Of a DNA stretch of 64,000 nt, positions 18,581 to 64,000 are shown in pieces. How positions within the stretch are numbered: the first letter of the stretch is position 1; the number at the start of each line of letters is the position of its first letter. The notes beneath the pieces were generated by a model. That model made no database searches, was not told the DNA's origin, and was given only the letters and a program-made list of their open reading frames with translations. Source of the stretch: Candidatus Poribacteria bacterium. GTDB lineage: Bacteria > Poribacteria > WGA-4E > WGA-3G. The position numbers and the translations under genes are program-made. The stretch covers positions 13,400 through 77,399 of the forward strand of contig PYJD01000007.1 in assembly GCA_003635315.1 (NCBI GenBank), in the 5' to 3' direction.

Positions 18581-18673
18581 AATTGTAAATAATGCTGCCC
18601 TTTACTATAAGTTTATTTTTGAACCCCGTAGGGGTGATATGTCTGTAGAAGAAGGCATCCCAGGAGTCATAAA

Positions 18674-19432: not shown

Positions 19433-19513
19433 TTGAGGATCACCTCATTTTCTGGTTCCATTGTAAAAATTGATTATTTCGAGGTATAAAGACATAGATT
19501 TTGAAGGTAAACA

Positions 19514-32346: not shown

Positions 32347-32362
32347 ATATCCTCCGTTAGAT

Positions 32363-33013: not shown

Positions 33014-33159
33014 TATTTCCTCCATGACAGCGATTATAAAATAATCTGTATTCAACCAAGGGAATCTCCCTTTGATTTTGCGATAATTATACGAGATTTT
33101 AAAATAAAATTCAATTTTTTAATCTGTTTACCGATAATCTTAAAAGCGACAACATTCCT

Positions 33160-47200: not shown

Positions 47201-47976
47201 ATTTGTTCACGTAAATGCACAAGCTTTTGGTTCAACAGATGATAAATTGGATGAAAAAAGAATACAACCCCGACAACTTGTGAAAACAGATTTATCAACC
47301 AATCAAGTCTTTGTATATGTGCTAATTCGTGTGCTGCTACCATTTCAAACTGTTCAAATGTCAAATCTCTTGGAATCAGGATATGTGGAGCTAACCAACC
47401 AAATGAGATTGGGGATACCACATCATCCGAATAACATACAGTGACAGGTCGTCTAATGTTAAATTGTTGTGCTAATCTCTTACAAATTAGCTGATAACCC
47501 TCCTCGGCAGTTGAGGTACGACTTCTAATCCTACTGATTCTATAAAAGCCAAATACGATCCTTATTAACATACTGAGTGTTCCAATTCCCCATATTCCAA
47601 GTATTAGGTGCGTAATTGACAATTTAGAATAGAACGGGTTATTCGAAGAAATGTGTTGGTTAGATAGTGTTTGGTTTTCAATTGATACAATCGTTGAAGG
47701 ATTAGACTCTTGGATATTAGACTCTTGGATATTTAAACTTGACACCTCCAAGGATTGTGTGGCAATTAATTTAGATTCAGCTTGTACGATAGAGAGTCCA
47801 GGAATAAATTGATTTAATGCGAATAGAATTGGTAAGCTGATTAAAAACAATAACCATAGTAAATGAACTGTGTTGTTTGATTGATGGAATCGTCTGGTTA
47901 TAAGCCATGTTAAACCACCTAATAATCCCCATTGCCATGAACAATTGAGCAATGAAAGTAGGATTTGATGAGTCAT
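44212..47976 (-). CDS. BlaR1-like M56 peptidase with three internal thioredoxin-like repeats, an EF-hand-like motif and a C-terminal ExbD/TolR-like domain
   Basis: TM helices and HELAH zinc motif (M56); SGPQxGEKLP...GREGPGxYGLNRN repeated three times; FDKDKDGILNEEE; LIIEAERGVSHEQIVKVMYIAKEAG. Translationally coupled to the upstream regulator (TGATG). Confidence 0.85.
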   Translation of the reverse strand: MTHQILLSLLNCSWQWGLLGGLTWLITRRFHQSNNTVHLLWLLFLISLPILFALNQFIPGLSIVQAESKLIATQSLEVSSLNIQESNIQESNPSTIVSIENQTLSNQHISSNNPFYSKLSITHLILGIWGIGTLSMLIRIVFGFYRISRIRSRTSTAEEGYQLICKRLAQQFNIRRPVTVCYSDDVVSPISFGWLAPHILIPRDLTFEQFEMVAAHELAHIQRLDWLINLFSQVVGVVFFFHPIYHLLNQKLVHLREQICDDWVIQLTGSRKKYAQCLLDLARHENGTIPLALSLNKPSWLESRIDSILKHNRRIDLTMKPRILILAASFLIICLPLLSMAQLIPIRTVPVSLFAQTSEKAEKPIDKTQNQKMLKTETENKKKKMYKDYSLIEVKDPTFSISSEEKRIFSGPQVGEKLPSFNVTGMYGEIEGKTFDITKTDRQPLMLFVQDASEVGVKGFGMVINLLLRIAEYQIQQANNEDTNQSLQIGVIFLIDNVDALPEWSVDDFKVWSEMGVMVCMSPGGREGPGSYGLNRNVAQTILISKDGKVTHNFAFTQPMLYTDPYVLGAVSQAIGVEPSTMEKWLNQKSANQKMKMGADQKSTEYYVSEIEKALMNGKMSKEEAKIKLEDLGINPERTAKLLNETKDASPKMDSRRYRNERQVKLSDPADFKKPEEKQIYSGPQPGEKLPPLKATSISGKSKDRSFDFISKAGKHPLILFMQDGNGAGLRGLYDTSRMIGTIISKSKQKLHMNVVFLGDDPEQLTQRVSGVAKRIVENGTNEILFGISHDGREGPGSYGLNRNVSQTVIIAKEGKVLYNFALTQPTVYADPHVLGAIVQTLGIDPDSAENWLNEQPAEQTRMQRQRQQMNQERIREREGEPSAEERSRRENNLEGRRMERDGDREKESALSPELLVKLFDKDKDGILNEEERMTVQRMLESGKNQNRNRRRKVEVKDPDEFNRNREKVLFSGPQPSEKLPSLMATVINGDDEGKTIDFIANANGKSHILVIQDETPLGLRGLVGFTRILEEISQKSKHEFQVQVVFLGDSPEALFQQASKIVPHIPENILLGISPDGREGPGNYGLNRNMAQTVIVAKNGIVLHNFPLAQPMLSPDPYVLGAISELIGEKPATLEEWLNIKIPIIKIMNPSKREENGKMFLKGSFVLNESVVDLDETVIQFDVLLTFLRSFPEVPESMLIIEAERGVSHEQIVKVMYIAKEAGIDKIVFDLSRVKDKSMDSNKSQEQRSKDSD

Positions 47977-48383
47977 CAGTCTCTCCTTGTAGATGTTACT
48001 TCTTCCGGTTGATAGTCATTGATAAGTTGTTGTAAACGATTCAATTCATCAGAACTTGTTTGTCTAACTTCAAGAAGAGTATTTACCAGTTTTTCGGCGG
48101 AATTGTCAAAAAGACGTTCAAGTAAATCGATCAACATTGTATGTGTAATTTCAGTTTCTTTGACCAATGGTTGGTAAACGAAGGTTCTACCTTCAACTTG
48201 ATGTGATAGAACCCCTTTTTTCTCAAGACTCTTCATGGTCGTAGCGATAGTGGTATAAGCAATTTTACGGTCAATAGCATCAAGCACATCATTGACAGTG
48301 GCACGCTCAAGTTTCCAGATTGCTTTCATAACTTCAAGCTCTAAATGGTGTAATCTGTTGGGTTTCATCCCTTTAATCCTCAT
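47976..48383 (-). CDS. BlaI/MecI/CopY family transcriptional repressor
   Basis: LELEVMKAIW...ATVNDV...AYTTIATTMKSLEKKG...GRTFVY. Confidence 0.93.
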   Translation of the reverse strand: MRIKGMKPNRLHHLELEVMKAIWKLERATVNDVLDAIDRKIAYTTIATTMKSLEKKGVLSHQVEGRTFVYQPLVKETEITHTMLIDLLERLFDNSAEKLVNTLLEVRQTSSDELNRLQQLINDYQPEEVTSTRRD

Positions 48384-48594: not shown

Positions 48595-50568
48595 TTAGAA
48601 TTTCCCAAACACGCGTACAAATATCTCCATATAATTCTGGTCGTTAACATCACCGATTGCACGTTGGTCAATGTACCGTGCTCCTATATGGAGAAACATC
48701 TGCTTACGATAAGCAACGAAACTCTTTTCCATTTCTGCTAACAGTGCTTGACGAACAAAGTCATTATCATCTTTCAGTAAATCATTAAAAAGGAGTAATT
48801 GTCCACCCCCTGTAAGTTTAATCGTCTTTGTAAACTGATATACTATTTTAAGAATAAGAGCAGGTGTCATATCTCGGACATGTGCTTGCTCAATATGCCG
48901 TAATCTTAGTTCACGTGTGACATCTCTACCGTCAATCTCTCCTCTTAATTTTAGGTAATCCAGTCTATCCTCTGCCATACGGAAACCATTCCGAATGGTA
49001 TACTTAAACATAGGACTGATTTCCAGTGATTTTGATGGACGTAGTCGGTATAACGTTTTAAAGATTCCGACTTCGTAGTGCTCATTATCATTATCAAAAT
49101 CGATATCATATTGTATTTTTGCGCGGGCAGTGGTAACCATTCGTCTGATTCCCAGATACTCCCATGTAAGTTTCGCAGTGTTGATGAGATCATTCTGCAT
49201 CAGCAATGGATCAATTCGTCGTTTTTCGACTTCCGCACCACCATCAACGTAAAAGAACTGTAAATCATTGTCTTCCAACATATCTTGAATGTGTGGTTGT
49301 CTTTTAAACAGATCTTCATCCTGTCTTCTTAAGAAACCAGCATAATACCAAGTTTCATCCGGTATTTCATCTTTCACCAGTTTGAGTTCATTCTCAAGTA
49401 TAAAAGTAGAAGCTCGTGCAAGCTGCCGTTTGTATATCATAGTACCATACGCTTTACTTGATCTTGGAATATTACGATATCTATGGTTTTCCTCTATTTG
49501 CATACCAAGGTCTAAATCGATGACGCTCTGTTTATGGTATATCTTTCGATTCATGAAGAATCGTATGCCTTGTAGTCCAACATCAAACTCGTAATTTGGG
49601 TCTTTATCATTTTCCTCTTCATCTCGTATCCCGTTGTTGTTTTGATCACTTTCGTCAAGAAAATCCTCATCGACATCAAACAGTAGGATATCGTCCTCAT
49701 AATCAAAAGTTCCGTTATTGTTTTTATCGAGGTCACCAGGAATAATTAGGGAAGGTGGATCAGGAAATGTGTTATCTGAATACCTGTCCTGATCATCATT
49801 ATCCCCTACTGACCGAGAAGCATCAAAACGCGGACCGACCCGATATGCCTCAGCTTGTAGAAGTGTATCGCCGACAGTTCGGAAAGCTTTGAAAACAGTT
49901 GTCGTCGCGTCAAACCGTGAATTCAGATCTTTATATAGAGCGTTTTTAGGTGTGACGGCTATCTCTGCTTTTAATCCATAGTTGGCGAAGTTCGTTTCCA
50001 TGTCTATTGCCCAAACAGGTGTTTCCCGAAAATACCAAGAAAGTCCAAGTTGTGATTTGCCAAATTTAGTAACCTCCCGCAACCCCATTCCTGAACCCTC
50101 TATTCGTCTTCCTTGCCCACTTAACCGGTTCAGTGTTCCCGGTACCATCAGGATAGTCCAATCTGTTCGGTTGGAACGTACCTCCCATCGCACTCCGCTC
50201 ATATCTATTTGATCAAAGGTGAATTTCGTGAATGTTGTGGGAACTTCACCGAGACTCAATATATTATTTACTGTACCTGCCGTTTCTTCAATAACCAATA
50301 CACTATGAAACCCACGTCTGAAAAGACGGTCAAAATCAAAATTATCTTGTCTGACACGTTCATCCTCTGTGTCGGCAAGAAAGTTACGTCTATTGGTAAA
50401 ATCATATTCTACACGTCCCGAAAGGAATAGTTTACCGAATAGACTGTATACATCCTCAGCGTTAACATGGAAGAAGGGAGAACAGAGGAAGAAAAAAGTG
50501 AAAGGTAGTAGAATGGATTTAATTACAGTACGATGCCTAATAGAACTTTTTGAGAAGGTATTATGCAT
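48595..50568 (-). CDS. Predicted outer-membrane beta-barrel protein with acidic Dx(D/N)xNG Ca-binding-like insert
   Basis: Signal peptide; amphipathic strand pattern with a terminal Phe (FVRVFGKF); insert GDLDKNNNGTFDYEDD...DQNNNGIRDEEE. Confidence 0.6.
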   Translation of the reverse strand: MHNTFSKSSIRHRTVIKSILLPFTFFFLCSPFFHVNAEDVYSLFGKLFLSGRVEYDFTNRRNFLADTEDERVRQDNFDFDRLFRRGFHSVLVIEETAGTVNNILSLGEVPTTFTKFTFDQIDMSGVRWEVRSNRTDWTILMVPGTLNRLSGQGRRIEGSGMGLREVTKFGKSQLGLSWYFRETPVWAIDMETNFANYGLKAEIAVTPKNALYKDLNSRFDATTTVFKAFRTVGDTLLQAEAYRVGPRFDASRSVGDNDDQDRYSDNTFPDPPSLIIPGDLDKNNNGTFDYEDDILLFDVDEDFLDESDQNNNGIRDEEENDKDPNYEFDVGLQGIRFFMNRKIYHKQSVIDLDLGMQIEENHRYRNIPRSSKAYGTMIYKRQLARASTFILENELKLVKDEIPDETWYYAGFLRRQDEDLFKRQPHIQDMLEDNDLQFFYVDGGAEVEKRRIDPLLMQNDLINTAKLTWEYLGIRRMVTTARAKIQYDIDFDNDNEHYEVGIFKTLYRLRPSKSLEISPMFKYTIRNGFRMAEDRLDYLKLRGEIDGRDVTRELRLRHIEQAHVRDMTPALILKIVYQFTKTIKLTGGGQLLLFNDLLKDDNDFVRQALLAEMEKSFVAYRKQMFLHIGARYIDQRAIGDVNDQNYMEIFVRVFGKF

Positions 50569-50612
50569 ATCTATGTTAATATATTAATGGTAGACTACAT
50601 GCTAACCGATAT

Positions 50613-53600
50613 CTATCTTACGATATCTTCAGGACCGTAGGCTTCGGTAAATGTTGTCCAGATACCTGACCGCTTATCATAACGGCTTAAACCCCGATAT
50701 GTACCGAACCAGACGTACGTATTGTCTATAGACATTGATAGAATACCGTTGTGGGATAAACCTTCATCTCTTGTGTAAGTTTTCCAAGTATCTTCTAATT
50801 GATCGAATCGACTGACACCAGCGTTGTATGTGCCTATCCAGACATCATTACCATCTACACCGATGGTTGTTATTTTATTACTTATGAGTCCATTTTCTGT
50901 GTTATAGATACGCCAATCTTCTGTGTCTTCATTATAGAGTGCTACACCTTGGTCACTCCCGAACCAAACACGAGTTCGATCAATAGCAATACAACTAATT
51001 TCGTTGCTAACGAGTCCATCCTCTTTAGTGATAGTTTTCCAGATATCGCGACCAATGTCGTATTTACTCACGCCTCGACGTGTTCCGACCCAAACGTTCT
51101 TTTTGCTTGCTGTTATTGTCCATATTTCATCCGTAACAAGTGATTCGGCAAACTCCTTAGATACCGCTGAGGGTTGAATTTCACTGCCGGAGGTATACGC
51201 GATCCAAGCATTCAGGTCATCCGCGGTACGAGGGTATTTGCCAATACCTGAATTTGTACCTACCCATATATTATTTCCATCTGTACTGACAGATGTTACA
51301 TTATTCGCGGGTAATCCGTGTTCGGTTTTATATTGATCCCATCGGAGTGCGATTTTATCAAACCTGTTTGCACCATCTCTTGTACCTACCCACACATATT
51401 GTTCATCAACGACAATTGAACTCACAGCGTTATCTGAGAGCATCCCGCGTGATTTCGGTCTATGGCGATGCCAATGTCCGTCGTGTGTAGCAATTTCCTC
51501 AGAACCGCCAGTCTGTCTATAGTTCTTCCATGTACCCAATCCTTTATCATAACGGGATACACCACTGTCCGTTCCAATCCATACGAATCGTTCGTCTGCA
51601 TCCACAGTCCGTACAGTCCGTCCTGATAGCGTTGGTAAAGGAATGAAAGGTGTCCAAGATTCCTTGTGTTTATCATACCGGGATAGACCGCGTATTGTAC
51701 CTACCCATACATAATCTTTATCAACTGCCAGACCATATTCTCCTACGTGGTTATGTAGTAATCCTTCAATATCTTTGAATGCTGACCATGTCCCCGAAGC
51801 GAAATGAAATCGTCTGAGACCGTTATTTGGAACAGCCAACCAGAGATAGTCTTCATCTGCTGCAAGTTCAAGGGTTCCACGTTCAGATTTGATTGTCGTC
51901 CATTCTTGATTGAGTTTATCATATCGGGTTACTGCATTATCCCATGGTCTGTATTGAATCCATACATCGTTCTTTGTAGAAATAATCCGTTTTATAGTCT
52001 TATGTGCGAGAACATCATTTGTGGAAAATGTGTCCCATTTTTTGGTCTTTTTATTGTATCTGGATAGTGGACGATTACTATGTCTATCCCATTCGGATCG
52101 AGCCACCCAAACAAAATCTTCGTCGATTGTAATCCATTCAGCACCCCTGCCAGCTAAACCGTCCTTTGGTCTATAACCTTTCCATTCTTCTGTATCTTCA
52201 TTATACCGTATCAAAGCATCTCCGGTACCGAACCAAATTTCAGATCCGTCAACCGCAATTCCTCTGAGTCTTTCTCTTTCATCTCTCCGATCTGGTTGCC
52301 TCACAATCTTCCAGGTACCAGTTTCTTTATCATACCGATTCAACTCCTGTCCAGTCATTGCAATTATCCACACCGCTTTATCGCTAACATCAATTTTGTG
52401 CAGATCGTCTGAAGCTAATCCATCCTTCATAGTAAAATGTTGCCATACATCTTTAGCTTTATCGTATCGTAGTACACCGTAGTCTGATGTGAACCAGACT
52501 GCATCATCATCTACATAAGTCCAACGGAGTACAGTCATCGTCTTTTTCAATGTAGACTGAAAAATATCCAATCGTGTGAACCGTTGCCAGGTTTTTGATG
52601 GACGATGGAAACGTAAAATACCTCCATTGCGAGAAGATCGCCAGTTAGAAAACCAAATATAATCACCGTCGAATTTGATCTGGGAGGTTTTCTTCTCAAG
52701 TAAAGGTTCACGTACTGGTCGAGACTGATGTAAAACTTGTTCACCATTTTGGAGTTGATGTTCAATCAGACCGGTATTGGTGGCTATCCATAGTCTATCT
52801 TTATCGCAAATGATATCACGTACATTGTAAGTTTTTTCGTTCGGTATCCATTCCTCTGTTGCTATTGAATAACTACCAATTCCTTGGGGTGTACCAATCC
52901 AAAGGACACCATTTTGATAATCGAGGGCGGTTATATTCAGAGGAGCATGCTTCCCGTCAGTACTATTTTTTAACGGTATGGGTTTCCATTGCTGTGATGT
53001 ATTCTCAAATCTTGCTAACCCAGTTTGAGTGCCTGCCCAAATTGTATTTTCTGCAGATACAAGTAAGTTTACATAGGGTTTTTCAAGTCCATCTGTGAGA
53101 CGAGACATCTGCTTATCGGTAATTGAATATCGCCATATACCTTCCACACCAGTAAACCATACACTTTCATCATGAATAAAAACGGATAATATCAAGGGAT
53201 TCTTAGGGGTATCTGGGAGGGTAAGTTTTGTCCACTGTTTTGTATCCACGTCAAATACTGCAGGTCCAACATTTGTACCGAGCCAAATTTTATCTGCACT
53301 CTGAGATGTATCAAAGGACTTGTCTTGTATAGCGACAGCAGTCACAAAAGCTTCTCCTTCAGATGGTCTATAAAATGTCCACTTTTCACCGATATAGTCA
53401 CACGAACCGAGTCCTCTTGCAGTTCCAATCCAAATCTGTCCTTTACTGGATAGGACATTGGAGATCTCATATAATTCATTCTGATCAGTTTTGGGTGTCT
53501 GTGCTTTAACATCAACGGACATAATGTAAGGAGTGGGGAGACCGTCTTCCTTAGAGATTACTTCCCAAGTTTTTGTTGAGGGTGAAAATATCGAGAGTCC

Positions 53601-54836
53601 AGCTACTGTGGCAATCCAAAGGTTGCCATCCGTATCCCGTGTTATATCTCTTACATCATTGTCTGCAAGAAAGTCAGCTTGTTTATAATTAGTCCATTCT
53701 CCGCTAACCTTATCGAATCGACTTACACCATCTTCTTTACTGGCAAACCAAACATCGTTGCCTTGTGTTGTTATCCAACTCACATTATTACTTGTAAGTC
53801 CATCTGCTTTTGTGTAATGTACCCATGTGTTAACGGGTTTGATGAATCGATGAACACCAGAATTAGCCGTTCCAAACCAGACTTGGAAGCCATCTGTACG
53901 GATCGAGGTAATGAAATTGCTTTTTAGGAGGTCTGTCTTTGTATATGTCTTGATAAATGTCTGGTCAACTTGATTATATTGACTAACCCCTCTGTGTTGT
54001 GTACCAAACCAAACACTGTCATCATCTACAGCGATTGTTGCGATTTCATTGTCAATTAAACCATCTGATTTCGTATAGTTATTCCAGGAATCTGTGTCTC
54101 GGTGATACCGGCTTACACCACCTCTACTAAATCTCGGATCTTCATCCCATCCATGTGGATCAGGATTTATCTCACGATCAGTTCCAACCCACACATATTC
54201 AGGTTCAACGGCTATTGTCGTGATAATCCTGCTAACTAAACCGTCTTTTCGAGTTCGAACAGCCCAACTATCGATCGTTTTGTCGTAACGGTTCAGACCG
54301 TTTGATGTGCCAAACCAGACATAGTTGCCATCAACAGCGATGGATGATACTTTATCACTTGCCAGTCCGTCAATAGTACGAAATGTAGAAAAGGTATTTG
54401 TTTGAATGTCCAATCTACTGACACCCTCATTTGTGGCGAACCACACCGATTTTCCTTCAATGGCAACAGCGTTGACCATATCATTTGCCAATCCATCTTC
54501 CATGGTATAGTGTAGCCATTTATCTTGCGTTCGAATCCAGCGAGAGACACCTTTTGCTGTTGCAATCCATACATTATCTGAATCCGCTGCAATACAGTTG
54601 ACTTCATTACTGATAAGTGTCCGTTTAACGGTCCATGTCTGTTTGGGTTTAGCATTTGGATTGGATTCACCGTAAGGCGTATCGGCTTCAGGATCGTGCG
54701 TTCCTAACGGACCACATCCAGACATAAAGACTGAGATTACATAGATACTACATATCAATATAAGTAAGTAGAGATTTCTGAAAGTCGCGATTCTGGGAGG
54801 TATGATTATTCTCTGCGTATGCATACGAATTGACAT
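50613..54836 (-). CDS. 1407-aa lipoprotein of two-component-regulator-type (Reg_prop-like) beta-propeller repeats
   Basis: Lipobox FMSGC; many WxxYTxxDGLxxNxVxxIxxDxxxVWxGTxxGVSRYD repeats; no kinase or output domain. Confidence 0.85.
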   Translation of the reverse strand: MSIRMHTQRIIIPPRIATFRNLYLLILICSIYVISVFMSGCGPLGTHDPEADTPYGESNPNAKPKQTWTVKRTLISNEVNCIAADSDNVWIATAKGVSRWIRTQDKWLHYTMEDGLANDMVNAVAIEGKSVWFATNEGVSRLDIQTNTFSTFRTIDGLASDKVSSIAVDGNYVWFGTSNGLNRYDKTIDSWAVRTRKDGLVSRIITTIAVEPEYVWVGTDREINPDPHGWDEDPRFSRGGVSRYHRDTDSWNNYTKSDGLIDNEIATIAVDDDSVWFGTQHRGVSQYNQVDQTFIKTYTKTDLLKSNFITSIRTDGFQVWFGTANSGVHRFIKPVNTWVHYTKADGLTSNNVSWITTQGNDVWFASKEDGVSRFDKVSGEWTNYKQADFLADNDVRDITRDTDGNLWIATVAGLSIFSPSTKTWEVISKEDGLPTPYIMSVDVKAQTPKTDQNELYEISNVLSSKGQIWIGTARGLGSCDYIGEKWTFYRPSEGEAFVTAVAIQDKSFDTSQSADKIWLGTNVGPAVFDVDTKQWTKLTLPDTPKNPLILSVFIHDESVWFTGVEGIWRYSITDKQMSRLTDGLEKPYVNLLVSAENTIWAGTQTGLARFENTSQQWKPIPLKNSTDGKHAPLNITALDYQNGVLWIGTPQGIGSYSIATEEWIPNEKTYNVRDIICDKDRLWIATNTGLIEHQLQNGEQVLHQSRPVREPLLEKKTSQIKFDGDYIWFSNWRSSRNGGILRFHRPSKTWQRFTRLDIFQSTLKKTMTVLRWTYVDDDAVWFTSDYGVLRYDKAKDVWQHFTMKDGLASDDLHKIDVSDKAVWIIAMTGQELNRYDKETGTWKIVRQPDRRDERERLRGIAVDGSEIWFGTGDALIRYNEDTEEWKGYRPKDGLAGRGAEWITIDEDFVWVARSEWDRHSNRPLSRYNKKTKKWDTFSTNDVLAHKTIKRIISTKNDVWIQYRPWDNAVTRYDKLNQEWTTIKSERGTLELAADEDYLWLAVPNNGLRRFHFASGTWSAFKDIEGLLHNHVGEYGLAVDKDYVWVGTIRGLSRYDKHKESWTPFIPLPTLSGRTVRTVDADERFVWIGTDSGVSRYDKGLGTWKNYRQTGGSEEIATHDGHWHRHRPKSRGMLSDNAVSSIVVDEQYVWVGTRDGANRFDKIALRWDQYKTEHGLPANNVTSVSTDGNNIWVGTNSGIGKYPRTADDLNAWIAYTSGSEIQPSAVSKEFAESLVTDEIWTITASKKNVWVGTRRGVSKYDIGRDIWKTITKEDGLVSNEISCIAIDRTRVWFGSDQGVALYNEDTEDWRIYNTENGLISNKITTIGVDGNDVWIGTYNAGVSRFDQLEDTWKTYTRDEGLSHNGILSMSIDNTYVWFGTYRGLSRYDKRSGIWTTFTEAYGPEDIVR

Positions 54837-54889
54837 CCTTTACAACTGTGTTGAATTCATCGAAGGTGTAATCTAAGTAAGTGATTATA

Positions 54890-57220
54890 TCATTTATTCT
54901 GGGTTATGTTATACTTTATTTTCGCTTCATCTAATCCGATAAATCGACTGTAGATTGCGATATTATTTAGTCTGCCAATCCAACTTCTACTACCATTTAC
55001 TTCATCACCAAAAAGTAGTATAGAAGATTCCCAATTGCTAAAGTTGCCTTGAATGCTTTTACTTGTATAGACCAATTCTCCATCAAGATAACAGTATGTA
55101 TTTCCTTCAAAATAACTTACGATGATGTGTAAAGGAATAGTTGATTCAATCTTTCCAAAAGAGAATTCACCACCCATTCCATTTTCACCGGTACGAGGTG
55201 TACGAATACGTACTGCGATGCGGTTACTCTCCTGCCCCAAGGTGAAGTTTCGATGTGTGATATCGTTTGAGAACGTAATAATCCTGGCGGGACCAGACTG
55301 ATTCAAGTTTTCTGTAGTTATAAGACATTCAAGAGTAAATTGGTTGCTTTTTTGGCATTCATTCAGAAGGATTTCATTCACATTCTTGGGAAGAATAGTT
55401 CCGTTTGACACATCCAACTGACCGTCAACTGTAATTGCAGCCCCATCCAAGAGTTCGATTTCATTGCTCTGCTCAAGTGAACCGTTCCATAAAAAGACAA
55501 GTCCATCTTTCGAACCTGGGAATTCTTTGTATGTACCCATGTCTACGGGTGTTTTGGGTAATACGTCAATCTTAAATGCTGTCGTTGATGTTGTGCCTTC
55601 TGCATCAGCAACCTTTAAGTTTACTGTGTATTGTCCCATATCTTGATAGGTGTGGGTAGGATTTGATTCAGTGGATGTTGTGCCGTCGCCAAAATCCCAA
55701 CTATATGACAAGTTACCTTCTGCAGAAAAGTTTACTGTAAGAGGAGCACTTCCTTGAACAATATTTGCGGTTGCTTTTACCTGAGGACGGATTTTTTCAC
55801 CTGTGACATACGGTGTAAATCGATATGCAAAATCAGGGTGTGGTGAAGTAAAGGTATACTCTCCAGGTTGTGCCGTGCCGATAGGAAGGATTTTCATGTT
55901 CCATGTATCAACAGCATCAATTTTGTAGGGTTGGTCTCCGCTTAGTTCTATGGTGATATCCTGTGGTTCGGTTGTGTAGACAAGATAGTATTCACCCTGT
56001 TTAGCAAGGATATATCGTCCGGCATCATCACCAACAGGTTCAAGTGTATCGAAAGGTGGTGCATCTGCCATGAATTCTTTTAGAAAAGCAATGCGTGGGG
56101 GACTATCACCACGTAGAATACCACCTTTTGCCCACCAGAGTAGGTCTTCAGGATGTTCATAAGTTTCACCGTGACCCACATAGCATCCTGAAAGTGTTCC
56201 AGACCAAAAACGATGCACCATTTGTTGAGCATTGATGTTTCCCCATCCATGTGGTATATTTCCTTCATACTTACATTCATCATAGATGACAGGTTTGCCG
56301 TATTGGCATCGGTAGCGAATGCCGTGTTCCATGTTGGATGTCTGGATACTGGTATGCGTTACCCATGGTTTCGAATGATCATACCAACCTCTGCAGTTAT
56401 GTATTCCTCGTAAACGTTGATATGGGTCGTGATAACGGATTATTTGGAAGAAACGGTTCCAATCGGTTTCATCCTTTGATGGCATGATGTCGTATTCATT
56501 GGCAAGTGACCACCAGACATTACGGTAGGCTGCTAAACGGGCAACCGCGTAACGGATATAGCGATCATCGCTTTCGGCGTCCATGTTCTCAAAATCCCAC
56601 CTATCATAAGTATGGAAGAGTATAATGTCTGCTTCTATACCAAGATTTAATAGATCTTGAACACGTTTTTCAAAGTGCTGCCAAAATACTGGGTTGAATC
56701 TGGTGAAATCCCAATCTGTGAGTGGCTTGCCTTCATAAGGGTAATAGAGGGGTTCATTTTTATTGTATACATAGTCTTTTGGAAAGATACACATCCGTAG
56801 TTTATTGAATGGGGCATTTTGGAGGGTCTTTAACGTTTGTTCCTCCATTGCATTCCCTTGATGTGTCCATGCATAGCATGTTGTGCCAAATTGATGATAT
56901 GGCGTTCCGTCCGCATACTGTAAATAGAAATCTTTATGAATTTGTATGGGACCGTGATTTTCCTTTGAAGGTTCAACACACGTAAATTGTCCGATTTTAT
57001 TATTTAGTTCTGTTATATTACTTTTTGTTGTGTATGTCCATTCCCCAATTTCGTTAGGCATGAATCTGATTTTATAGATACCGTTCCCATCATAAAATCC
57101 ATGCGGAATAAAGGTATTATTTTCGTGTTTAAATTCGGCTGTTAATTCTACCTCTACGAACGGGTTCCCTGAATCTGGACCATTCAGTGATATTTCATAT
57201 AGTCCCCAACAATCAACCAT
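54890..57220 (-). CDS. DUF5060-DUF4038-DUF5605 (apiosidase-like) glycoside hydrolase candidate with PKD and LamG-like domains
   Basis: SGNPFVEVELTAEF...GFYDG; YADGTPY...GTTCYAW; WWSLANEYD; YDECKYEG; PKD YSWDFGDGT; LamG-like FTLECLI...GPARII. Confidence 0.8.
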   Translation of the reverse strand: MVDCWGLYEISLNGPDSGNPFVEVELTAEFKHENNTFIPHGFYDGNGIYKIRFMPNEIGEWTYTTKSNITELNNKIGQFTCVEPSKENHGPIQIHKDFYLQYADGTPYHQFGTTCYAWTHQGNAMEEQTLKTLQNAPFNKLRMCIFPKDYVYNKNEPLYYPYEGKPLTDWDFTRFNPVFWQHFEKRVQDLLNLGIEADIILFHTYDRWDFENMDAESDDRYIRYAVARLAAYRNVWWSLANEYDIMPSKDETDWNRFFQIIRYHDPYQRLRGIHNCRGWYDHSKPWVTHTSIQTSNMEHGIRYRCQYGKPVIYDECKYEGNIPHGWGNINAQQMVHRFWSGTLSGCYVGHGETYEHPEDLLWWAKGGILRGDSPPRIAFLKEFMADAPPFDTLEPVGDDAGRYILAKQGEYYLVYTTEPQDITIELSGDQPYKIDAVDTWNMKILPIGTAQPGEYTFTSPHPDFAYRFTPYVTGEKIRPQVKATANIVQGSAPLTVNFSAEGNLSYSWDFGDGTTSTESNPTHTYQDMGQYTVNLKVADAEGTTSTTAFKIDVLPKTPVDMGTYKEFPGSKDGLVFLWNGSLEQSNEIELLDGAAITVDGQLDVSNGTILPKNVNEILLNECQKSNQFTLECLITTENLNQSGPARIITFSNDITHRNFTLGQESNRIAVRIRTPRTGENGMGGEFSFGKIESTIPLHIIVSYFEGNTYCYLDGELVYTSKSIQGNFSNWESSILLFGDEVNGSRSWIGRLNNIAIYSRFIGLDEAKIKYNITQNK

Positions 57221-57677
57221 TTACTTCTCCATGTTCTGTCTTTATTTATATGTACAGTAAGTCTGATTAAAATGAGCTTAATAATGAGAAATATAAAGTA
57301 AAACCGTAAATTTGTTATACCCTATTTCAATTTCAAATATCCGAGTTATGGGATATTATCTATAACGGATAGACGTTAGGGTAATCTTAATGTTTATTGG
57401 GAATATTCATCAAAAGGAATGTAGAACTATCAATTGAAGGATAGTACAATGGTTGACGGATATACTGTTCATAATATGGACAGTTTTGTATATATTCATA
57501 TAATAGAATTAATGGAATATCTAAAGGTACCGTGAGTTCGATAATAGTATGTATCGGCTGAAAACTGTTTATGATGCATATATTGCTTATTCCGTTGTTA
57601 TGTTAGTTTAATTTATTGGCATATATATTGCTTACATTTAATTAGAAGAGTACGAAATCTAATTTGGAGGGAAGAAT

Positions 57678-58094
57678 ATGAACAGATGGAAATATATAAT
57701 CCTTACACTACCATTTTTATTTTTGACGGGGTGTGCAGCACTTTTTGCAAAACAGGAATATGTCCTTATTGACAAACCAATTTCAGAAAAGGCTGTTTTC
57801 CACGGCATGATTTATGCTATGCCTGAAATAGCACAGGTTCGAAAGGTCGTTTTTCAAGGTGAAGGAAAATATTCCAATTTTCAAATACACGTACGGGATA
57901 GTAAGAAACGATGGAAACCGTATAAAAAGATAGCGAATGCAATTACATTCCCACATGAAGTCTTTGTTAGTGCTAAGACGGATGCAATCAAAATCATCAA
58001 ACCAAACACAACAGGTTCGGGTCGTATTTGGTCTGTAGAATTCTATACAATCAGAGACAAACCCCAAGTAGAGCAAAATATGGATGAAAATTAA
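57678..58094 (+). CDS. Small hypothetical lipoprotein, paralog A
   Basis: Lipobox LTGC; GGAGG RBS. Confidence 0.75.
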   Translation: MNRWKYIILTLPFLFLTGCAALFAKQEYVLIDKPISEKAVFHGMIYAMPEIAQVRKVVFQGEGKYSNFQIHVRDSKKRWKPYKKIANAITFPHEVFVSAKTDAIKIIKPNTTGSGRIWSVEFYTIRDKPQVEQNMDEN

Positions 58095-58246
58095 TGACAT
58101 AGAATTTTTCATTCCTTATGTCTTATTTGCATATCAACTTCAGCATTGGCTAATGCATTATCACCACTTTCGCTGGAATGCTAACTATTATAAACGATGT
58201 AGTTAATCAGTCCTGAGACCCATTATACGTAGATTCAGGAAGTATT

Positions 58247-58630
58247 ATGAATAAATGGACGTTAGTATTAATTTTGTTGTTCTGGTTTTCTTTAGGAGGT
58301 TGTGCCACACTTTTACAGGAGCAGGAATATGTATTAATTGACCGACCAGTTATTAATGATCATACATACTATTATGATATTTTTTCATTACCTGAAATTG
58401 CGAAAATACGAAAAATTAGACTGATAGGTGAAGGAAAGTTAAGAAACATCGAAATCTATGTCCGTGATACAAAACAGAGGTGGCAACTGAAGCAAAAAAT
58501 ACATCAAATCAATCAATTGCCATTTGATATTCCGCTCGTTGTCAATACAGATGCTGTAAAAGTGAAAAAATTCCATACTACAGTATTTGGAGAAATTGAA
58601 ACCATTCAGTTTTTCACTGTAGCAGATTAA
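58247..58630 (+). CDS. Small hypothetical lipoprotein, paralog B
   Basis: Lipobox LGGC; shares QEYVLID.P, PEIA..RK...GEGK and YVRD with paralog A. Confidence 0.75.
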   Translation: MNKWTLVLILLFWFSLGGCATLLQEQEYVLIDRPVINDHTYYYDIFSLPEIAKIRKIRLIGEGKLRNIEIYVRDTKQRWQLKQKIHQINQLPFDIPLVVNTDAVKVKKFHTTVFGEIETIQFFTVAD

Positions 58631-58912
58631 GATAACAACATATTTTAAAAACACCTTTCTTGGTTATATATCCTACTACCCATACAATACCAGATTGTTG
58701 GAAATGTAAACTGGGTGGTTTATCTCTCTCGGTTGTTATTTGTTGCCCCAAAATGTGCATTGGTATTCTTAGCTGCCCATTTTCGTGCCAATTTATAGTC
58801 CTAACCGAATGTGAAAATACCTAAAATTGAATAAAACTTTTTATCCTGATCTTACTCATAGGTTTATATATGTATCAAAATACTGCAGTCTATCAGATGG
58901 AATACCCAGCGA

Positions 58913-61900
58913 ATGAATAAGTTTAAACTGGTTGTAAATTGTGCTTTAATGCTGTTTTGGATGATAGGAATGTTCGTATTCTTTGGCTGTGGGGCACAAA
59001 GTCTCGGTCCGTATGAACCTTTATTGCCTGCTATCGAAGGAGCTGATAAGTTCTCAGATAGATTCCAATTGGACGAAGAACCCAACTTTTACTATGATCT
59101 CTATGGTACAGAAATTGTTGAAGGGACAGAACTCAATAGATATTCTGATGAAAAACAATTTGATAAGAACGGTAAATTGGTTGTGGGGTGGACAGGGCAA
59201 CTTGATAGTCTGCGTTTCACTTCGCAATTAGAACGGACTATAATAGTTGAAGAAACTTTTCTTGGAAGATTTACTGAGTTTGCTATAGGGGATCACTTAC
59301 GACTAAAACCTTCTACTTTGTTTCCAAATCGATATATTATATATAAGACAGAATTCGATGGTTTGCGATGGGATATTTCTTTTGCTCAAGAACACCATCT
59401 ATTTTCACTTATCCACTCACGGATCTCTAATCCCATTCGAATTACAGACGCTATTCCAGGACAAAGACTGGGTGGAGAACTCGGTCGAAGAAATGGGTTG
59501 AACCAGTTATCTGGTGTCAGGAATATTGAAAATGCAAGATTGGTTGGGTTTCGTGGACAAGGATTGATAGGTGAGTTATTTCGTGTAGGTTTTACGTATG
59601 TTAATATGCATAAGGAACATCCAGAACGATTAATTGGATCATTGATGGGAACCGTTGCAAATACACCACCCGAAGTAATATCTATTGTTTTTCGTGATGA
59701 CTCACCCGAAGATAACCATACAGACCTATTAACAGATTTTGACAATTATGATGCAGCTTTACATGGGGATAGTATTCAGGAAGGGGTTGGTGTTGCATTT
59801 AAGAGCATGAAGATCACCATCGTTACACAAGAACTTGAAGAATTGACACCTGAAGATATCAAAGAGGGAATTGAACCAAAACACCTACCAGAAGAAACAC
59901 GCTACATTGAAGTCAGTGCGGACCAGATCGTTCCTGTTAATCACGCTGGAGGCCCTTCAGTAGTACGGAATTCAGTAGACGGGAAATGGAGAATCGTTAG
60001 TGGTTTCAATAAGATGAAATACGACTTGATTCTCACTGATCAAAGAATAGATATTGACCCACGAACTGTTAGATCTGTTGTGTTTGATATGGTAGTTGCG
60101 GGGGATTACAACATTGCTGTCATCGGATTTAGCGAAGCAAATAAATCTGAATCAAATCCGTCATTGCAAGAGTGGATTAAAACCGACGATGGACATATTC
60201 AAATTCCCTATCGTGATATTATACAAGCTCCTGGTAATTATGGACAATCTGATGAATATATTTCTAACAGAAGAAAACTTGCTGACAATCCCAGTGAGTG
60301 GAAGGGTGAAGGAAGACCTCGGAAAGTAAGATATCGTTATGGTAGTGCAAGAGCTGCCACTTTATACGGAATTGATATTGAAGGAACGGTCAGTAATGTC
60401 CGCATCAGAGCACAGTATTCTATTAACGGCAAATATAAACAGTATCCAACAGTTCCAAAAGACAAGGTAGGATTTAGTCGTAAGGAGACTACAGTAAAAA
60501 CCCCCACTGGAGAAGAAGAAACAGGTGTATCCCTTGATAGACGAACTGGACTCTATGTAGATGCACAGGGGATTCCCACTTACTCGGAAACGGAAGGTGA
60601 ACGGTTTGAAACTTTATTGGGAGGGGACGGAACTGAAGAGGATGGAGATGGTATTCTCGGTAGAGAAAAGGCATGGTTTATCCAACTTGAATCCCGCTTT
60701 GAAAAACTTCACTTAGAGGGTGCAATATATCATATTGATCCTGGCTACACAACCAACTACCAGAATTTTGGTGCACATCCGGGGAGAGGTCAAATTTATA
60801 CAATTGGTCCACCCCAAGGTAATAACCCAATTCCTCCTGAAGTAGAATCATGGGATGAAGGCATTTACAATTTGGTTGAGGATGACGATGATGGGGATGA
60901 CTGGCCCGATGACATCGACTTTGATGGACTCATTCCACTCGCAGATGACAGAGACCAGAACGGTGTATTAGATTTCCAAGAGGACTTTCTTATTTTTGAT
61001 GCTGACCCACCTGTGTTCACAAACATTACTGACTTAAACAATAACGGCATTGTTGATTCCATTGAAGATAACTACGAACCAGAATACGAATATGGAATAG
61101 ATCGTAAAGGGTACCACCTTAAAGCAGAATACGATATACTTGACAATCTCGCACTCAAAGTTGGTTGGATAAACGAACGGGAGATTTCAAGCAGACGGAA
61201 AAACAACTCCAAATACATACATCTCACCTATGAACGCGACATCCCCGATTTTGGTAGTTTTTTCTTTCAAAATAGATATGTTAGAGCACAAGATGATATT
61301 CCGGAATACACAATTGCCTTACCTGTTGGAGAATTGGAACCGATCCATTTTAATGATGAGCTTGATTATTACAACGCGCGTAGGAATACAACAACTTTCC
61401 AACTCATATATACTGCTGTGAAGAATTTGACGCTTGAAGCCAAGGCATTAGTTTTTATGCATAAACAATTTGAACAGGATGTTGAAAAAGCACTGTTTAC
61501 AGATATTGAATATGATCCTGGAACAGAGAATTTTGAACCTGATGAACGTGTTGATTTTATGGTGCCAATAGATCAGGTGCGTTCTGTTAACAGAAGAAGA
61601 TATTACCCTTTCTATCCAGATCACGGATTAAATGCTCTTGATCCAAGCGATACAGGTTTAATTTATGATGAATCAAACTGGAAGAAACGCCGTTATGCGG
61701 AACAGATTATATACAATCAACTGACAATTCTTAAAGCAAGATACGAAATTCCCTTGGGTAATCTTCCATTTATCAGAAAACATAGTGAAGGTTTCTCACT
61801 TACCCCGATGGTAAAATATGTTTGGGAACGCGCTTTTGATAGAGATGGTGATGAAATACCCAAAATACTTAACCCTAAATTGTATTCACCAACCGATGAT

Positions 61901-62254
61901 CAGACAGTCGAATATTTACGGTTCAATAAAAGAAGTCGCGAGGATATTCTCGGTTTTCGACTGGATTATCAGTTTACACAGAGATTTAAAATTCTCGGTG
62001 GATTTCAATATAGGAAATTTACCAACCGAAATAAGATCTTTAAGAACTATTTACGGAATTTTCCTGTTGATACGGAAATCCCATATTTACATCGTCCCGA
62101 CCTACGCACCCGTATTTTTGAAATTCAAGCTATCAATAGGGGAAGTTGGCTGGGGTTCTATATTGTAGTACTTTCCGGACACCGTATAACAAACAATCTG
62201 TTCCGGCATACGATAAGTAATACCACCTATGTTCGTGCAATGGTTGGATTCTAA
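58913..62254 (+). CDS. Large predicted outer-membrane beta-barrel protein with acidic Ca-binding-like insert, paralog of 48595..50568
   Basis: Possible lipobox FFGC; terminal YVRAMVGF; insert EDDDDGDDWPDD...DRDQNGVLDFQED...DLNNNGIVDSIED. Confidence 0.6.
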   Translation: MNKFKLVVNCALMLFWMIGMFVFFGCGAQSLGPYEPLLPAIEGADKFSDRFQLDEEPNFYYDLYGTEIVEGTELNRYSDEKQFDKNGKLVVGWTGQLDSLRFTSQLERTIIVEETFLGRFTEFAIGDHLRLKPSTLFPNRYIIYKTEFDGLRWDISFAQEHHLFSLIHSRISNPIRITDAIPGQRLGGELGRRNGLNQLSGVRNIENARLVGFRGQGLIGELFRVGFTYVNMHKEHPERLIGSLMGTVANTPPEVISIVFRDDSPEDNHTDLLTDFDNYDAALHGDSIQEGVGVAFKSMKITIVTQELEELTPEDIKEGIEPKHLPEETRYIEVSADQIVPVNHAGGPSVVRNSVDGKWRIVSGFNKMKYDLILTDQRIDIDPRTVRSVVFDMVVAGDYNIAVIGFSEANKSESNPSLQEWIKTDDGHIQIPYRDIIQAPGNYGQSDEYISNRRKLADNPSEWKGEGRPRKVRYRYGSARAATLYGIDIEGTVSNVRIRAQYSINGKYKQYPTVPKDKVGFSRKETTVKTPTGEEETGVSLDRRTGLYVDAQGIPTYSETEGERFETLLGGDGTEEDGDGILGREKAWFIQLESRFEKLHLEGAIYHIDPGYTTNYQNFGAHPGRGQIYTIGPPQGNNPIPPEVESWDEGIYNLVEDDDDGDDWPDDIDFDGLIPLADDRDQNGVLDFQEDFLIFDADPPVFTNITDLNNNGIVDSIEDNYEPEYEYGIDRKGYHLKAEYDILDNLALKVGWINEREISSRRKNNSKYIHLTYERDIPDFGSFFFQNRYVRAQDDIPEYTIALPVGELEPIHFNDELDYYNARRNTTTFQLIYTAVKNLTLEAKALVFMHKQFEQDVEKALFTDIEYDPGTENFEPDERVDFMVPIDQVRSVNRRRYYPFYPDHGLNALDPSDTGLIYDESNWKKRRYAEQIIYNQLTILKARYEIPLGNLPFIRKHSEGFSLTPMVKYVWERAFDRDGDEIPKILNPKLYSPTDDQTVEYLRFNKRSREDILGFRLDYQFTQRFKILGGFQYRKFTNRNKIFKNYLRNFPVDTEIPYLHRPDLRTRIFEIQAINRGSWLGFYIVVLSGHRITNNLFRHTISNTTYVRAMVGF

Positions 62255-62371: not shown

Positions 62372-64000
62372 ATGAATACCAACCCCACTCATTTAAGACG
62401 TAGATTATTGTTATATGGTACACTTTTATGGATTTTAGGTATACCTCGGTTTATTAATGCCATTGAACCAATTGCAACAATTGGACAACCAACCCCACTA
62501 CAGCACGCTTTTCTTACAAATGACACATTTGTCCGCGTTGTACCAACACATATTCAAATCGTGAATGCCGATACAGGTTTAGTGATAGATGAATTTGCTA
62601 AGCTAAATGAATATGATGATGTTGTCTTTAGTTCAGAAACCACGCATTGTGCAATTCAGAAATCGTTAGATAATCCCAGGGGATATACTATAGAGATTTG
62701 GGATGTTAATGCACGTGCGCAAATTTCTCAATGGGATATTGAAGATGATTTTCGTATCGCTGCCTTCAGTCCTACTGAACCAATATTTGCAGCAATTATT
62801 AGCAACAAAGTTAATCTATGGAATTGGCAAACAGGTGAACAAATTGGCATGATGGTAGATGCCCGACGTCCAGCTAACCCATGCTATACCTATACATATC
62901 CTGACGGAAGGGGGACAAGTCGTACCTGTCTCAGTCCTGCAGGCGAGAATAAAATGGTGTTTACACCAGATGGAAAATTTCTATTTGTGGCATCACAACG
63001 ACCAGATATAGAGGTGTGGAACATCGAAACACGCACATTAGTTGAGCACATTGAAGGACACACAGGTGACTGGGTTGATGGTCTGGTTATCAGTTCTGAT
63101 GGAAAGTACTTGGCTTCGTTTGAAAGCATCGCAGGCATAGTTTATATATGGGATGTGGCAACAAGACAACTATTATGGACAACCAAGAACGGTAATGGAT
63201 ATATTACAAGCATTGCCTTTAGTCCGAATAGTCAACATTTATATGTTACCACGACAACAGCAAGGTTCTGGAGGTCTGGACTTAATCCATGGGAAGGATG
63301 GGATGAAAAGGTCAGAGTCTGGAATGTTAAGTCGAGTGAACAAATTGATACCATTGAGACGAAGTTTCGTAGTTTAAGCAGAATAGAAATATCTCCAGAC
63401 GGGAAAACATCACTAATTGAATATTCTGATGGGATTATACTATGGGATATAGAGAAAAAAGAACCGGTGCATGAGTGGACAGACTTTGCAGGACGTTGGT
63501 TCTGGGAACTCCCTGATTTGAGTCCTGATGGAAAAACGGTAGTCTCATTATCTCGTCATTTTATAAAGACTTGGGATGTATCAACACAACAGATGGGATT
63601 ACTAATTTCTGCAGAGGATTATAGATTCGAAGGATTGGCAATTTCACCGGATAGTAAAAAGATTGCTGTTGGCAAAGATCCGTGGATTGATATTCTTGAC
63701 ATTCAAACAGGTAATGTTGAAACCCAAATTCCTCCGAAGTTTGTTTGGTCTATTGAAAAAATTGCATTCAGCCAAACAGGTAGGTGGCTTGCTGTATCAG
63801 ATGGTAATGATGATCTTGCAATTGTGGATATGAATAATTCTGATAAATCCCAGAATCTCAAACAAGATGATGTCCCAGTTGGTATAAAAGGATATAGAGA
63901 ATTTGCCTTTAGTGAAAATGATACCTACTTTGTAGCTTCAGGACGAACCGGTAATAACAATAATTATCAATATTGGATCCAATTGTGGAAACCTATAAAC
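62372..64000 (+). CDS. Secreted WD40-repeat beta-propeller protein (3'-partial, absent from the ORF track)
   Basis: ATG at 62372 after a GGAG RBS; I translated the frame and found no stop to the window end. Signal-like N-terminus; repeats such as EGHTGDWVDGLVISSDGKYLAS...WDV and AFSPNSQ...VWNV. Confidence 0.88.
   Translation, partial: MNTNPTHLRRRLLLYGTLLWILGIPRFINAIEPIATIGQPTPLQHAFLTNDTFVRVVPTHIQIVNADTGLVIDEFAKLNEYDDVVFSSETTHCAIQKSLDNPRGYTIEIWDVNARAQISQWDIEDDFRIAAFSPTEPIFAAIISNKVNLWNWQTGEQIGMMVDARRPANPCYTYTYPDGRGTSRTCLSPAGENKMVFTPDGKFLFVASQRPDIEVWNIETRTLVEHIEGHTGDWVDGLVISSDGKYLASFESIAGIVYIWDVATRQLLWTTKNGNGYITSIAFSPNSQHLYVTTTTARFWRSGLNPWEGWDEKVRVWNVKSSEQIDTIETKFRSLSRIEISPDGKTSLIEYSDGIILWDIEKKEPVHEWTDFAGRWFWELPDLSPDGKTVVSLSRHFIKTWDVSTQQMGLLISAEDYRFEGLAISPDSKKIAVGKDPWIDILDIQTGNVETQIPPKFVWSIEKIAFSQTGRWLAVSDGNDDLAIVDMNNSDKSQNLKQDDVPVGIKGYREFAFSENDTYFVASGRTGNNNNYQYWIQLWKPIN

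Follow-up and report, generated by a model that had tools for sequence, protein, structure and literature searches.

We ask what two large barrel proteins, and the propeller proteins encoded beside them, do in the cell envelope of the sponge symbiont Candidatus Poribacteria. The genes lie on a 64,000-nucleotide stretch of DNA (GenBank assembly GCA_003635315.1, contig PYJD01000007.1, positions 13,400 to 77,399 of the forward strand; hereafter, we refer to this whole stretch as "the window"). An initial annotation, made from the letters alone, had picked out two divergent open reading frames (ORFs), P0001 and P0002, as paralogous outer-membrane barrel candidates with thrombospondin-3-like acidic inserts, each beside a giant propeller, and had proposed an uptake or secretion apparatus, SusCD-like in logic but built from unrelated families. 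We find that the two proteins are ancient paralogs within an unnamed family of predicted outer-membrane beta-barrels and that the pairing of barrel and propeller is conserved among relatives. The pairing is probably the mark of an envelope system, so far undescribed, with which bacteria of at least seven little-studied groups capture or move polymers.

Among the major degraders of polysaccharides in sponges, sediments, and soils are Poribacteria, Latescibacterota, Gemmatimonadota, Ignavibacteria, and allied groups. For these bacteria, we know of no route that takes large substrates through the outer membrane. The barrel family is a concrete candidate for this missing step in polysaccharide uptake, because it is widespread, paired with an exported lectin or propeller, often found in glycan loci, and often close to ExbB/ExbD genes without TonB.

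Two anciently diverged paralogs

Both ORFs exist with exactly the boundaries first assigned to them (Table 1), and every shared motif listed at that stage recurs, in order, in both translations. SGVRWEV (residue 124 of P0001) pairs with DGLRWDI (residue 149 of P0002), RVGPRF with HIDPGY, and SPMFKY with TPMVKY; the copies of the YQFT-type motif are VYQFTKTIKLTGGGQ and DYQFTQRFKILGGFQ. A direct BLASTP comparison aligns 141 aa, comprising the acidic block and the next 70 residues, at E 1e-12. To this we add a profile comparison between the short subfamily (A5, 28 proteins) and the long subfamily (A6, 26 proteins), which have no sequence in common: hhalign gives a probability of 98.6% and E 1.2e-15 over 315 columns, from the DNDD motif and insert through PMxKY to YQFTxxxKxxGGxQ. 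Judged from these alignments, the similarity is far above chance and the two proteins are genuine deep paralogs, as had been proposed. In a tree of 156 sequences, the two Poribacterial subfamilies form separate deep clades, so we regard the pair as ancient rather than as the product of a recent duplication. The same complete Poribacterial assemblies contain both paralogs, and their adjacent placement is seen, besides the window, only in one close relative (locus L090, 90% identity).

Predicted outer-membrane barrels outside the named families

The AlphaFold2 model of P0001, built from a 54-sequence alignment, has a mean predicted local distance difference test score (pLDDT) of 84.4 and a predicted template-modeling score (pTM) of 0.79. 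It shows an uninterrupted antiparallel meander of 26 strands, with a short hairpin possibly adding two more (26-28), and a protruding hairpin of two 31-residue strands. The P0002 model (pLDDT 66.7, pTM 0.69) follows the strand order of P0001 with inserted domains. When the models are compared with the PDB by Foldseek, all strong matches listed for either one are outer-membrane barrels. The top match in both cases is SlpA of Deinococcus radiodurans (E 1.5e-9 and 1.2e-10), and the next matches listed are MtrB, LptD, FadL, TonB-dependent transporters, ushers, and SprA; the template-modeling (TM) scores are low (0.2-0.3), so that these matches give a fold class and not an orthologous family. Both proteins also show the generic hallmarks of the class, namely an export signal, an all-beta meander, and a C-terminal aromatic residue, and the terminal phenylalanine is invariant in both subfamilies. 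The models thus predict outer-membrane beta-barrels of 26-28 strands for P0001 and P0002, in line with the initial annotation, and not soluble folds.

Searches of Pfam, NCBIfam, and PDB sequences with P0001 and P0002 return nothing significant, including any characterized porin or TonB-dependent receptor family, and a PDB search with the family profile yields only a noise match, to saporin. Neither barrel matches Plug (PF07715) or TonB_dep_Rec (PF00593) in Pfam or NCBIfam at E<=1, and no N-terminal globular plug is present in the models; profile searches and models therefore agree that no plug can be recognized, as first reported. Neither protein gives an SLH domain match, and neither model shows a long helix. 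For SlpA_C (PF21620), P0001 scores E 0.68 (8.7 bits against a cut-off of 35) and P0002 does not match, while sub-threshold Pfam matches occur in 4 of 36 relatives (the best a partial match at E 2e-7). Because of the remote structural likeness to SlpA and these weak SlpA_C matches, the fold is not wholly without relatives. The claim that the barrels come from unrelated families thus stands at the level of significant sequence similarity but must be qualified by the remote likeness to the SlpA barrel.

An unnamed family in seven or more phyla

An exhaustive HMMER search gathers 74 representative clusters, whose distant members are 640-1120 aa long and have the insert in common. With an insert-only alignment, a scan of one genome per species finds at least 425 confirmed loci in seven or more phyla. 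These are mainly Latescibacterota (several per genome), Gemmatimonadota, metagenome-assembled genomes (MAGs) of Ignavibacteria/Bacteroidota, KSB1, Zhuqueibacterota, and Neomarinimicrobiota, together with one "Myxococcales" MAG; Poribacteria likewise carry the family. Among the carriers is one MAG of Ignavibacterium album. The family signature runs (V/L)(E/D)DNDDxD..PD, then (V/I)(F/Y)PGxDxDxDGxPDYxExFLxYxVDP and DxNNNGxxDxxENDxxPDYPY, with a KRVxDxIPD turn four strands further on. P0001 and P0002 both carry this signature, score on the family hidden Markov model, and fall inside the family tree. No member has a name in Pfam or NCBIfam, and the literature searched holds no description of the family. 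Even if its role should be export or tethering, characterizing it would remove the label "hypothetical" from at least 425 loci in species-representative genomes.

Propellers are kept beside both barrels

P0003, the gene upstream of the short barrel P0001, has at least 25 Reg_prop blade motifs with a period of ~42 aa, which suggests about four propellers; PorZ-type propeller matches are below cut-off, and the protein carries no type IX secretion system (T9SS) C-terminal domain (CTD). In the hybrid two-component systems of Bacteroides, it is Reg_prop propellers that sense glycans. A Reg_prop protein of 1000-1400 aa adjoins the short barrel in the window and in relatives at 75% (L001), 59%, and 35% identity, although the arrangement changes: the two genes overlap by 4 nt in L001, the 59% relative has the order barrel, 228 aa, 1386-aa Reg_prop, and the 35% relative has the order 1011-aa Reg_prop, 92 aa, barrel. 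L090 has the same Reg_prop and apiosidase-like genes, with the former running off the edge of the locus and the short barrel outside the part of L090 that was covered. Among all other loci of the family, only one more Reg_prop-like ORF was found.

A WD40 gene follows that of the long barrel P0002 in the window and L090 and precedes it in a 73% relative (L095). The full-length WD40 relatives are 786 and 780 aa long, 51% identical, and end in a FlgD_ig/Por_Secre_tail domain of the T9SS type (LLQNFPNPFNPETWIPF...). The barrel-propeller pairing is therefore conserved synteny and not coincidence, kept to 35% identity for the short barrel and in both L090 and L095 for the long one. The sequence signals of the propeller partners are firm evidence for targeting to the outer membrane, through lipidation in one case and a C-terminal sorting domain in the other. 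That each barrel sits beside a giant propeller applies to the 1407-aa P0003 but not to the WD40 partner, which at ~786 aa in relatives is not giant. The apiosidase-like gene, described earlier as co-transcribed with barrel and propeller, was rejected as a conserved partner: it is adjacent only in the window and L090, and not in the 75%, 59%, and 35% relatives. A family-wide WD40 partnership through one BLAST cluster (c4), which links the WD40 protein of the window to proteins of FCB (Fibrobacteres-Chlorobi-Bacteroidetes) phyla, was also dropped, as the cluster is heterogeneous and mainly CTD-driven, with few WD40 members.

This synteny bears on one rival explanation, that the barrels are ordinary general diffusion porins with incidental propeller neighbors. 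A wide barrel without a recognized plug domain, in multiple paralogs, would suit a porin. However, partner synteny persists to 35% identity despite changing gene order, neighbors are strongly enriched across the family (see below), and the most conserved element is a specialized acidic module rather than the pore wall. We consider the porin explanation very improbable.

Two further observations concern the exported proteins of these loci. WD40 and PD40 propellers with a classic CTD of the T9SS type (NFPNPFNPETWIPF...; sites in Table 1) are found in Poribacteria, which lie outside the FCB phyla. In addition, several exported proteins end in KLTTTWGxLK-type tails (window 31702-33118, minus strand; L090 7216-9055; L001 16063-16761). 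In L090, two such tailed proteins, one with LamG and one a TolB/Tricorn-like propeller, lie just before the long barrel, in between the small lipoproteins, and both genes are absent at the corresponding position of the window. The tail may be a barrel-linked sorting or docking signal.

The acidic insert and the side it faces

The acidic block is present in both proteins, but its description as thrombospondin-3-like holds only as a loose likeness, because TSP_3 (PF02412) gives no Pfam match in P0001 or P0002 even at E<=1. What the insert holds instead is two loops per protein that match the canonical 12-residue EF-hand pattern D-x-[DN]-x-[DN]-G-x-x-[DN]-x-x-[DE] (Table 1).

The P0001 model places the insert between strands 12 and 13, with 12 strands before it and 14 (or 16) after. 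Barrels inserted by the beta-barrel assembly machinery (BAM) usually have both termini in the periplasm. As an even-to-odd connection in a barrel with periplasmic termini, the insert should therefore be on the periplasmic side or be folded into the lumen; from strand parity in the model, we infer a periplasmic or lumenal location and not one on the cell surface. Conservation is highest in the connectors that parity assigns to the periplasm (2.00 bits, compared to 0.93 for those assigned to the exterior and 1.50 for strands), and the large insertions of longer family members are also on the periplasmic side by parity. This placement argues against the idea of a propeller lid that docks on the barrel surface through the insert. 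The metal-binding insertions that line the giant pore of SlpA offer a precedent for the acidic insert (PMC9388160). The family also offers a large barrel, open to testing, in which the conserved end, of calcium-binding type, is predicted by parity to face the periplasm.

Glycan loci and ExbB/ExbD genes

The short clade, including the 35% relative, has a support of 0.999 and is sister to five barrels of 750-830 aa with a support of 0.84 (0.99 with P0273). All five are in glycan loci with LacI regulators, among them beta-1,2-glucan loci with GH144-like and GH94 genes. These loci encode glycoamylase/GH144-like enzymes and glycoside hydrolases (GH) of families GH94, GH2, GH3, GH35, and GH42, along with proteins that combine a carbohydrate-binding module (CBM30, CBM11) or F5/8C domain with a T9SS CTD, and often a PorV/TraF/FadL-like barrel of 310-320 aa. 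By analogy, the layout is of the polysaccharide-utilization type, with the family barrel in the place that SusC holds in Bacteroidota; no SusC/SusD-type pair occurs in the glycan loci examined.

For the long barrel, loci of other Poribacteria (L002-L004, 69% identity) have the barrel followed by a CarboxypepD_reg-ExbB gene and two ExbD genes, and no TonB gene is seen in the Poribacterial loci examined. ExbB-ExbD genes lie within ~10 kb of the barrel in 15 of the 77 genome loci described in the next section.

Because the sister clade of the short barrels is always in glycan-utilization loci, SusCD-like capture and import is our best guess for function, held tentatively: the propeller would capture polymers, probably glycans, and the barrel would serve as their conduit. 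The SusCD-like logic put forward in the initial annotation draws support from these loci, but the likeness does not extend to a SusD-like partner or a TonB_dep_Rec barrel.

Family-wide neighbors and two rival explanations

Neighborhoods were counted in 77 genome loci with a full-length barrel, in which ORFs were called and then clustered. Two or three tandem barrels are present in 36 loci. Immediately downstream of the barrel, 37 loci have a 1050-aa tetratricopeptide-repeat (TPR) protein that passes the tol_pal_ybgF (CpoB) and BamD cut-offs, with a sub-threshold score on PorW/SprE. Immediately upstream, an F5/8C lectin-like protein with a T9SS CTD is found in 33 loci and a PorV/PorQ-family barrel in 12. 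DUF4159 occurs in 45 loci, ExbB in 15, ExbD in 13, DUF5683 in 15, and PpiC in 7 (immediately downstream of the barrel in 4). When jackhmmer is seeded with the Poribacterial CTDs, it recovers 83 of 86 lectin-like neighbors of FCB barrels. CTD-bearing ORFs make up 25.3% of genes at most two positions from the barrel versus 6.7% of the more distant genes of these loci (odds ratio 4.7, p 2.5e-12, with the loci phylogenetically non-independent), and in 53 of the 77 loci such an ORF lies no more than two genes from a barrel.

One operon is highly syntenic among several of these loci. In L061 (Ignavibacteriales, 5495-20376), it begins with an F5/8C-CTD protein, a PorV/PorQ-like barrel, the family barrel, and the CpoB/BamD-like 1050-aa TPR protein and continues with DUF4159, ExbB, ExbD, ExbD, a PstS-like lipoprotein, DUF4159, and DUF5683; M20 and M29 peptidases and a major facilitator superfamily transporter lie upstream, and L050, L058, L063, and L076 are similar. 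Up to three tandem family barrels are found in L071 (Gemmatimonadaceae, 8273-17204), L010, L018, and others. Those of L071 are flanked by sulfatase genes and several unannotated ~500-aa proteins (cluster c7), which suggests a sulfated-glycan locus.

The enrichment of CTD-bearing ORFs bears on a second explanation, in which the barrels are dedicated export or anchoring devices that place or hold the partner propeller or lectin on the cell surface. They might act as Slam does for surface lipoproteins or PorV/PorP for T9SS cargo, or as a reduced translocon of the SprA kind, served by a PorV-like shuttle, a TPR protein resembling SprE, and a motor of the ExbBD type. The PorV/PorQ-family barrels, the score of the TPR partner on PorW/SprE, and the adjoining PpiC genes all fit such a device, as do the Foldseek match of P0002 to SprA, the homologous CTD of the Poribacterial WD40 partner, and the TTWGxLK-tailed proteins inside the long-barrel operon of L090. 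Yet the FCB phyla with these loci would, as a general expectation, have a canonical T9SS for CTD cargo, and P0003 lacks a CTD. The loci that resemble polysaccharide-utilization loci encode LacI and GHs of the cytoplasm or periplasm, whose substrates must be imported, and no other import route is visible there. SprA, moreover, is one of many barrel matches, with a TM-score of 0.10-0.17 for P0002; the NCBIfam SprA family models do not match, and P0001 and P0002 are in a size class of 650-1100 aa. On balance, we consider the export explanation somewhat unlikely.

A third explanation takes the barrels as envelope scaffolds or tethers that transport nothing, either SlpA/OmpM-like or part of a Tol-Pal-like proton-driven integrity machine with the propellers in a TolB-like periplasmic role. 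The best structural match, SlpA, is a connector between outer membrane and cell wall whose barrel has been argued not to be a pore, and by parity the conserved face and the big insertions of the family are periplasmic. The CpoB/BamD-like TPR protein, the recurrent ExbB/ExbD (TolQ/TolR-like) and DUF4159 membrane-protein genes, and the TolB-like PD40 propellers of L090 and L095 also fit. By contrast, neither P0001 nor P0002 has a coiled coil or a domain that binds peptidoglycan, such as SLH or OmpA_C. An entire clade is found in substrate-regulated glycan loci, and the number of paralogs, as many as three in tandem at one locus and many in a genome, suggests diversification of specificity and not a single scaffold. 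We regard a pure scaffold as quite improbable.

A proposed mechanism

Under capture and import, the acidic module of the calcium-binding type would sit in the periplasm or fold into the barrel lumen like a plug. Each of the two anciently diverged 26-28-stranded barrels would cooperate with its own exported partner, a beta-rich binding protein brought to the outer membrane. P0001 would have the four-propeller Reg_prop lipoprotein P0003 as its partner, and P0002 a WD40 double propeller with a T9SS-type CTD, perhaps aided by P0245 and P0246, the two small lipoproteins. The propeller would bind a polymer, probably a host or algal glycan, for which the wide barrel would provide the path through the outer membrane. 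In the lineage of P0002, an ExbB-ExbD-type motor, genes for which adjoin the long barrel in other Poribacteria, may gate this path by way of the acidic module on the periplasmic side.

Several points weigh against this interpretation. As noted above, the Foldseek TM-scores are low. No ExbB/ExbD gene is visible within the window, and the GH140-like gene is not conserved beside the barrel-propeller pair and, as encoded, has no signal peptide. The side assigned to the insert depends on strand counting in one AlphaFold2 model, and a barrel with its bulk and conservation toward the periplasm is no less compatible with a scaffold or a periplasmic docking platform than with a gated channel. Finally, the family-wide neighbors (CTD cargo, PorV/PorQ-like barrel, CpoB/BamD/SprE-like TPR protein, PpiC) resemble a secretion or anchoring set.

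A more far-reaching possibility, which we deem unlikely, is that the barrels form the core of an unrecognized trans-envelope machine of FCB phyla and Poribacteria. Such a machine would combine a wide barrel that has a periplasmic calcium-binding gate with a TonB-less ExbB-ExbD-ExbD motor; the CpoB-like 1050-aa TPR protein and DUF4159 membrane proteins would serve as non-canonical transducers, and the barrel would be physically coupled to proteins with T9SS-type CTDs or lipid anchors. If true, it would amount to either a SusCD-independent energized glycan importer or a SprA-independent route to the surface for CTD proteins.

Gene content of the window

The two gene sets are divergent and separated by a 457-nt spacer, in which promoter-like hexamers are no more frequent than in shuffled sequence. 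The neighbors of the barrels are those first described, namely a Reg_prop lipoprotein, an apiosidase-like protein, two small lipoproteins, and a WD40 protein. In sequencing runs, the sequence matches sponge metagenome DNA only, and close homologs carry the annotation Candidatus Poribacteria.

Table 1. Coordinates of the two gene sets, their sequence elements, and related sites (window positions unless a locus is named)
Feature	Position	Strand	Description
BlaI repressor and 1254-aa BlaR1-type M56 protein	44212-48383	-	Directly downstream of P0001
P0001	48595..50568	-	657 aa, short family barrel; signal peptide, predicted cleavage at about VNA/ED; C-terminal end FVRVFGKF
P0001 acidic insert	49576..49836	-	aa 245-331; DNDDQD motif, two EF-hand-like loops, PNYEF
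P0001 EF-hand-like loops	49693-49728 and 49612-49647	-	aa 281-292 and 308-319
P0003	50613..54836	-	1407 aa, predicted lipoprotein, lipobox MSGC; Reg_prop E 5.9e-38
P0004	54890..57220	-	776 aa; DUF5060, apiosidase-like (GH140-like), PKD, LamG_3
Divergent intergenic region	57221..57677		AT-rich
P0245	57678..58094	+	Small predicted lipoprotein (LTGC), paralog of P0246
P0246	58247..58630	+	Small predicted lipoprotein (LGGC), paralog of P0245
P0002	58913..62254	+	1113 aa, long family barrel; lipobox Cys26; C-terminal end YVRAMVGF
P0002 acidic insert	60872..61111	+	aa 654-733; DDDDGD motif, two EF-hand-like loops, PEYEY
P0002 EF-hand-like loops	60947-60982 and 61031-61066	+	aa 679-690 and 707-718
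WD40 propeller protein, exported	62372..64000	+	Signal peptide; truncated by the window end at aa 543
Propellers with T9SS-type CTD	L095 2965-5307; L090 13500-15860; window 62372-64000

On the minus strand, the gene order is P0004-P0003-P0001, and the intergenic gaps of 53 and 44 nt are compatible with co-transcription. P0004 begins directly at DUF5060, with no signal peptide and no upstream ORF fragment able to supply one; its length of 776 aa is identical in the 90% relative, and a leaderless start of this kind is unexpected given its PKD and LamG domains. The BlaI/BlaR1 pair was rejected as a partner of P0001, since it does not adjoin the short barrel in the relatives examined. The C-terminus of the M56 protein has a weak ExbD/TolR match (E 7e-4).

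On the plus strand, P0002 differs from the short barrel by an extra domain of ~235 aa (~aa 236-470) and further insertions. Its lipobox, flagged earlier as possible, is real: Cys26 is invariant across 26 homologs. P0245 and P0246 are 40% identical, and both are kept upstream of the long barrel in L090. P0245 has a weak, sub-threshold F5/8C (discoidin) match (E 0.11), and a miniature lectin fold is possible. The suggestion that the two correspond to the small GH2_N-like proteins upstream of polysaccharide-utilization-type barrels was rejected (hhalign probability 0.4%).

Comparison with known systems

SlpA of D. radiodurans (PDB 8ae1, 7zgx), one of the SlpA/OmpM connectors, is the top Foldseek match and, like the proteins studied here, a very large single-chain outer-membrane barrel with acidic metal-binding insertions associated with the pore (PMC9388160). 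However, SlpA has 30 strands, an SLH domain, and a coiled-coil stalk, whereas P0001 and P0002 are predicted to have 26-28 strands and have neither of these elements; the insert signature is specific to the family, and the gene neighborhood differs.

The SusC/SusD system resembles the present one in that a barrel is encoded beside a binding protein targeted to the outer membrane, relatives are in LacI/GH/CBM loci, and ExbB/ExbD genes are nearby. It differs in the plug, the TonB_dep_Rec barrel, and the SusD (RagB) partner, none of which P0001 and P0002 have. A TonB-dependent transporter holds its N-terminal plug inside a 22-stranded barrel, fewer strands than the 26-28 predicted here. Moreover, the conserved module of the family is modeled as facing the periplasm, and the loci examined show no TonB gene.

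The T9SS has, in the outer membrane, the SprA translocon with PorV, PPI, and SprE, as well as the PorP/SprF anchors. With this system, the family shares neighbors of its relatives (CTD-tagged proteins, a PorV/PorQ-family barrel, a SprE/CpoB-like TPR protein, and PpiC), and P0003 resembles PorZ propellers, below cut-off. However, SprA has ~2400 aa and 36 strands, compared to 650-1100 aa here with no match to an NCBIfam T9SS model, and P0003 is a lipoprotein without a CTD.

LptD-LptE, MtrB-MtrA/C, and BamA-BamB are similar in that the 26-strand class is among the top fold matches and a cognate lipoprotein is adjacent; BamB, like the partner P0003, is a propeller lipoprotein. These systems differ in having no sequence relation to the family, which has no LptD/OstA or POTRA domains, and in the partner, here a putative four-propeller protein of ~1400 aa.

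The fold class and the logic of a barrel plus a partner were thus already known. New are the barrel family itself, its signature module, the partner set, and, as predicted by the model, conservation that faces the periplasm, for none of which we found a description in the literature searched.

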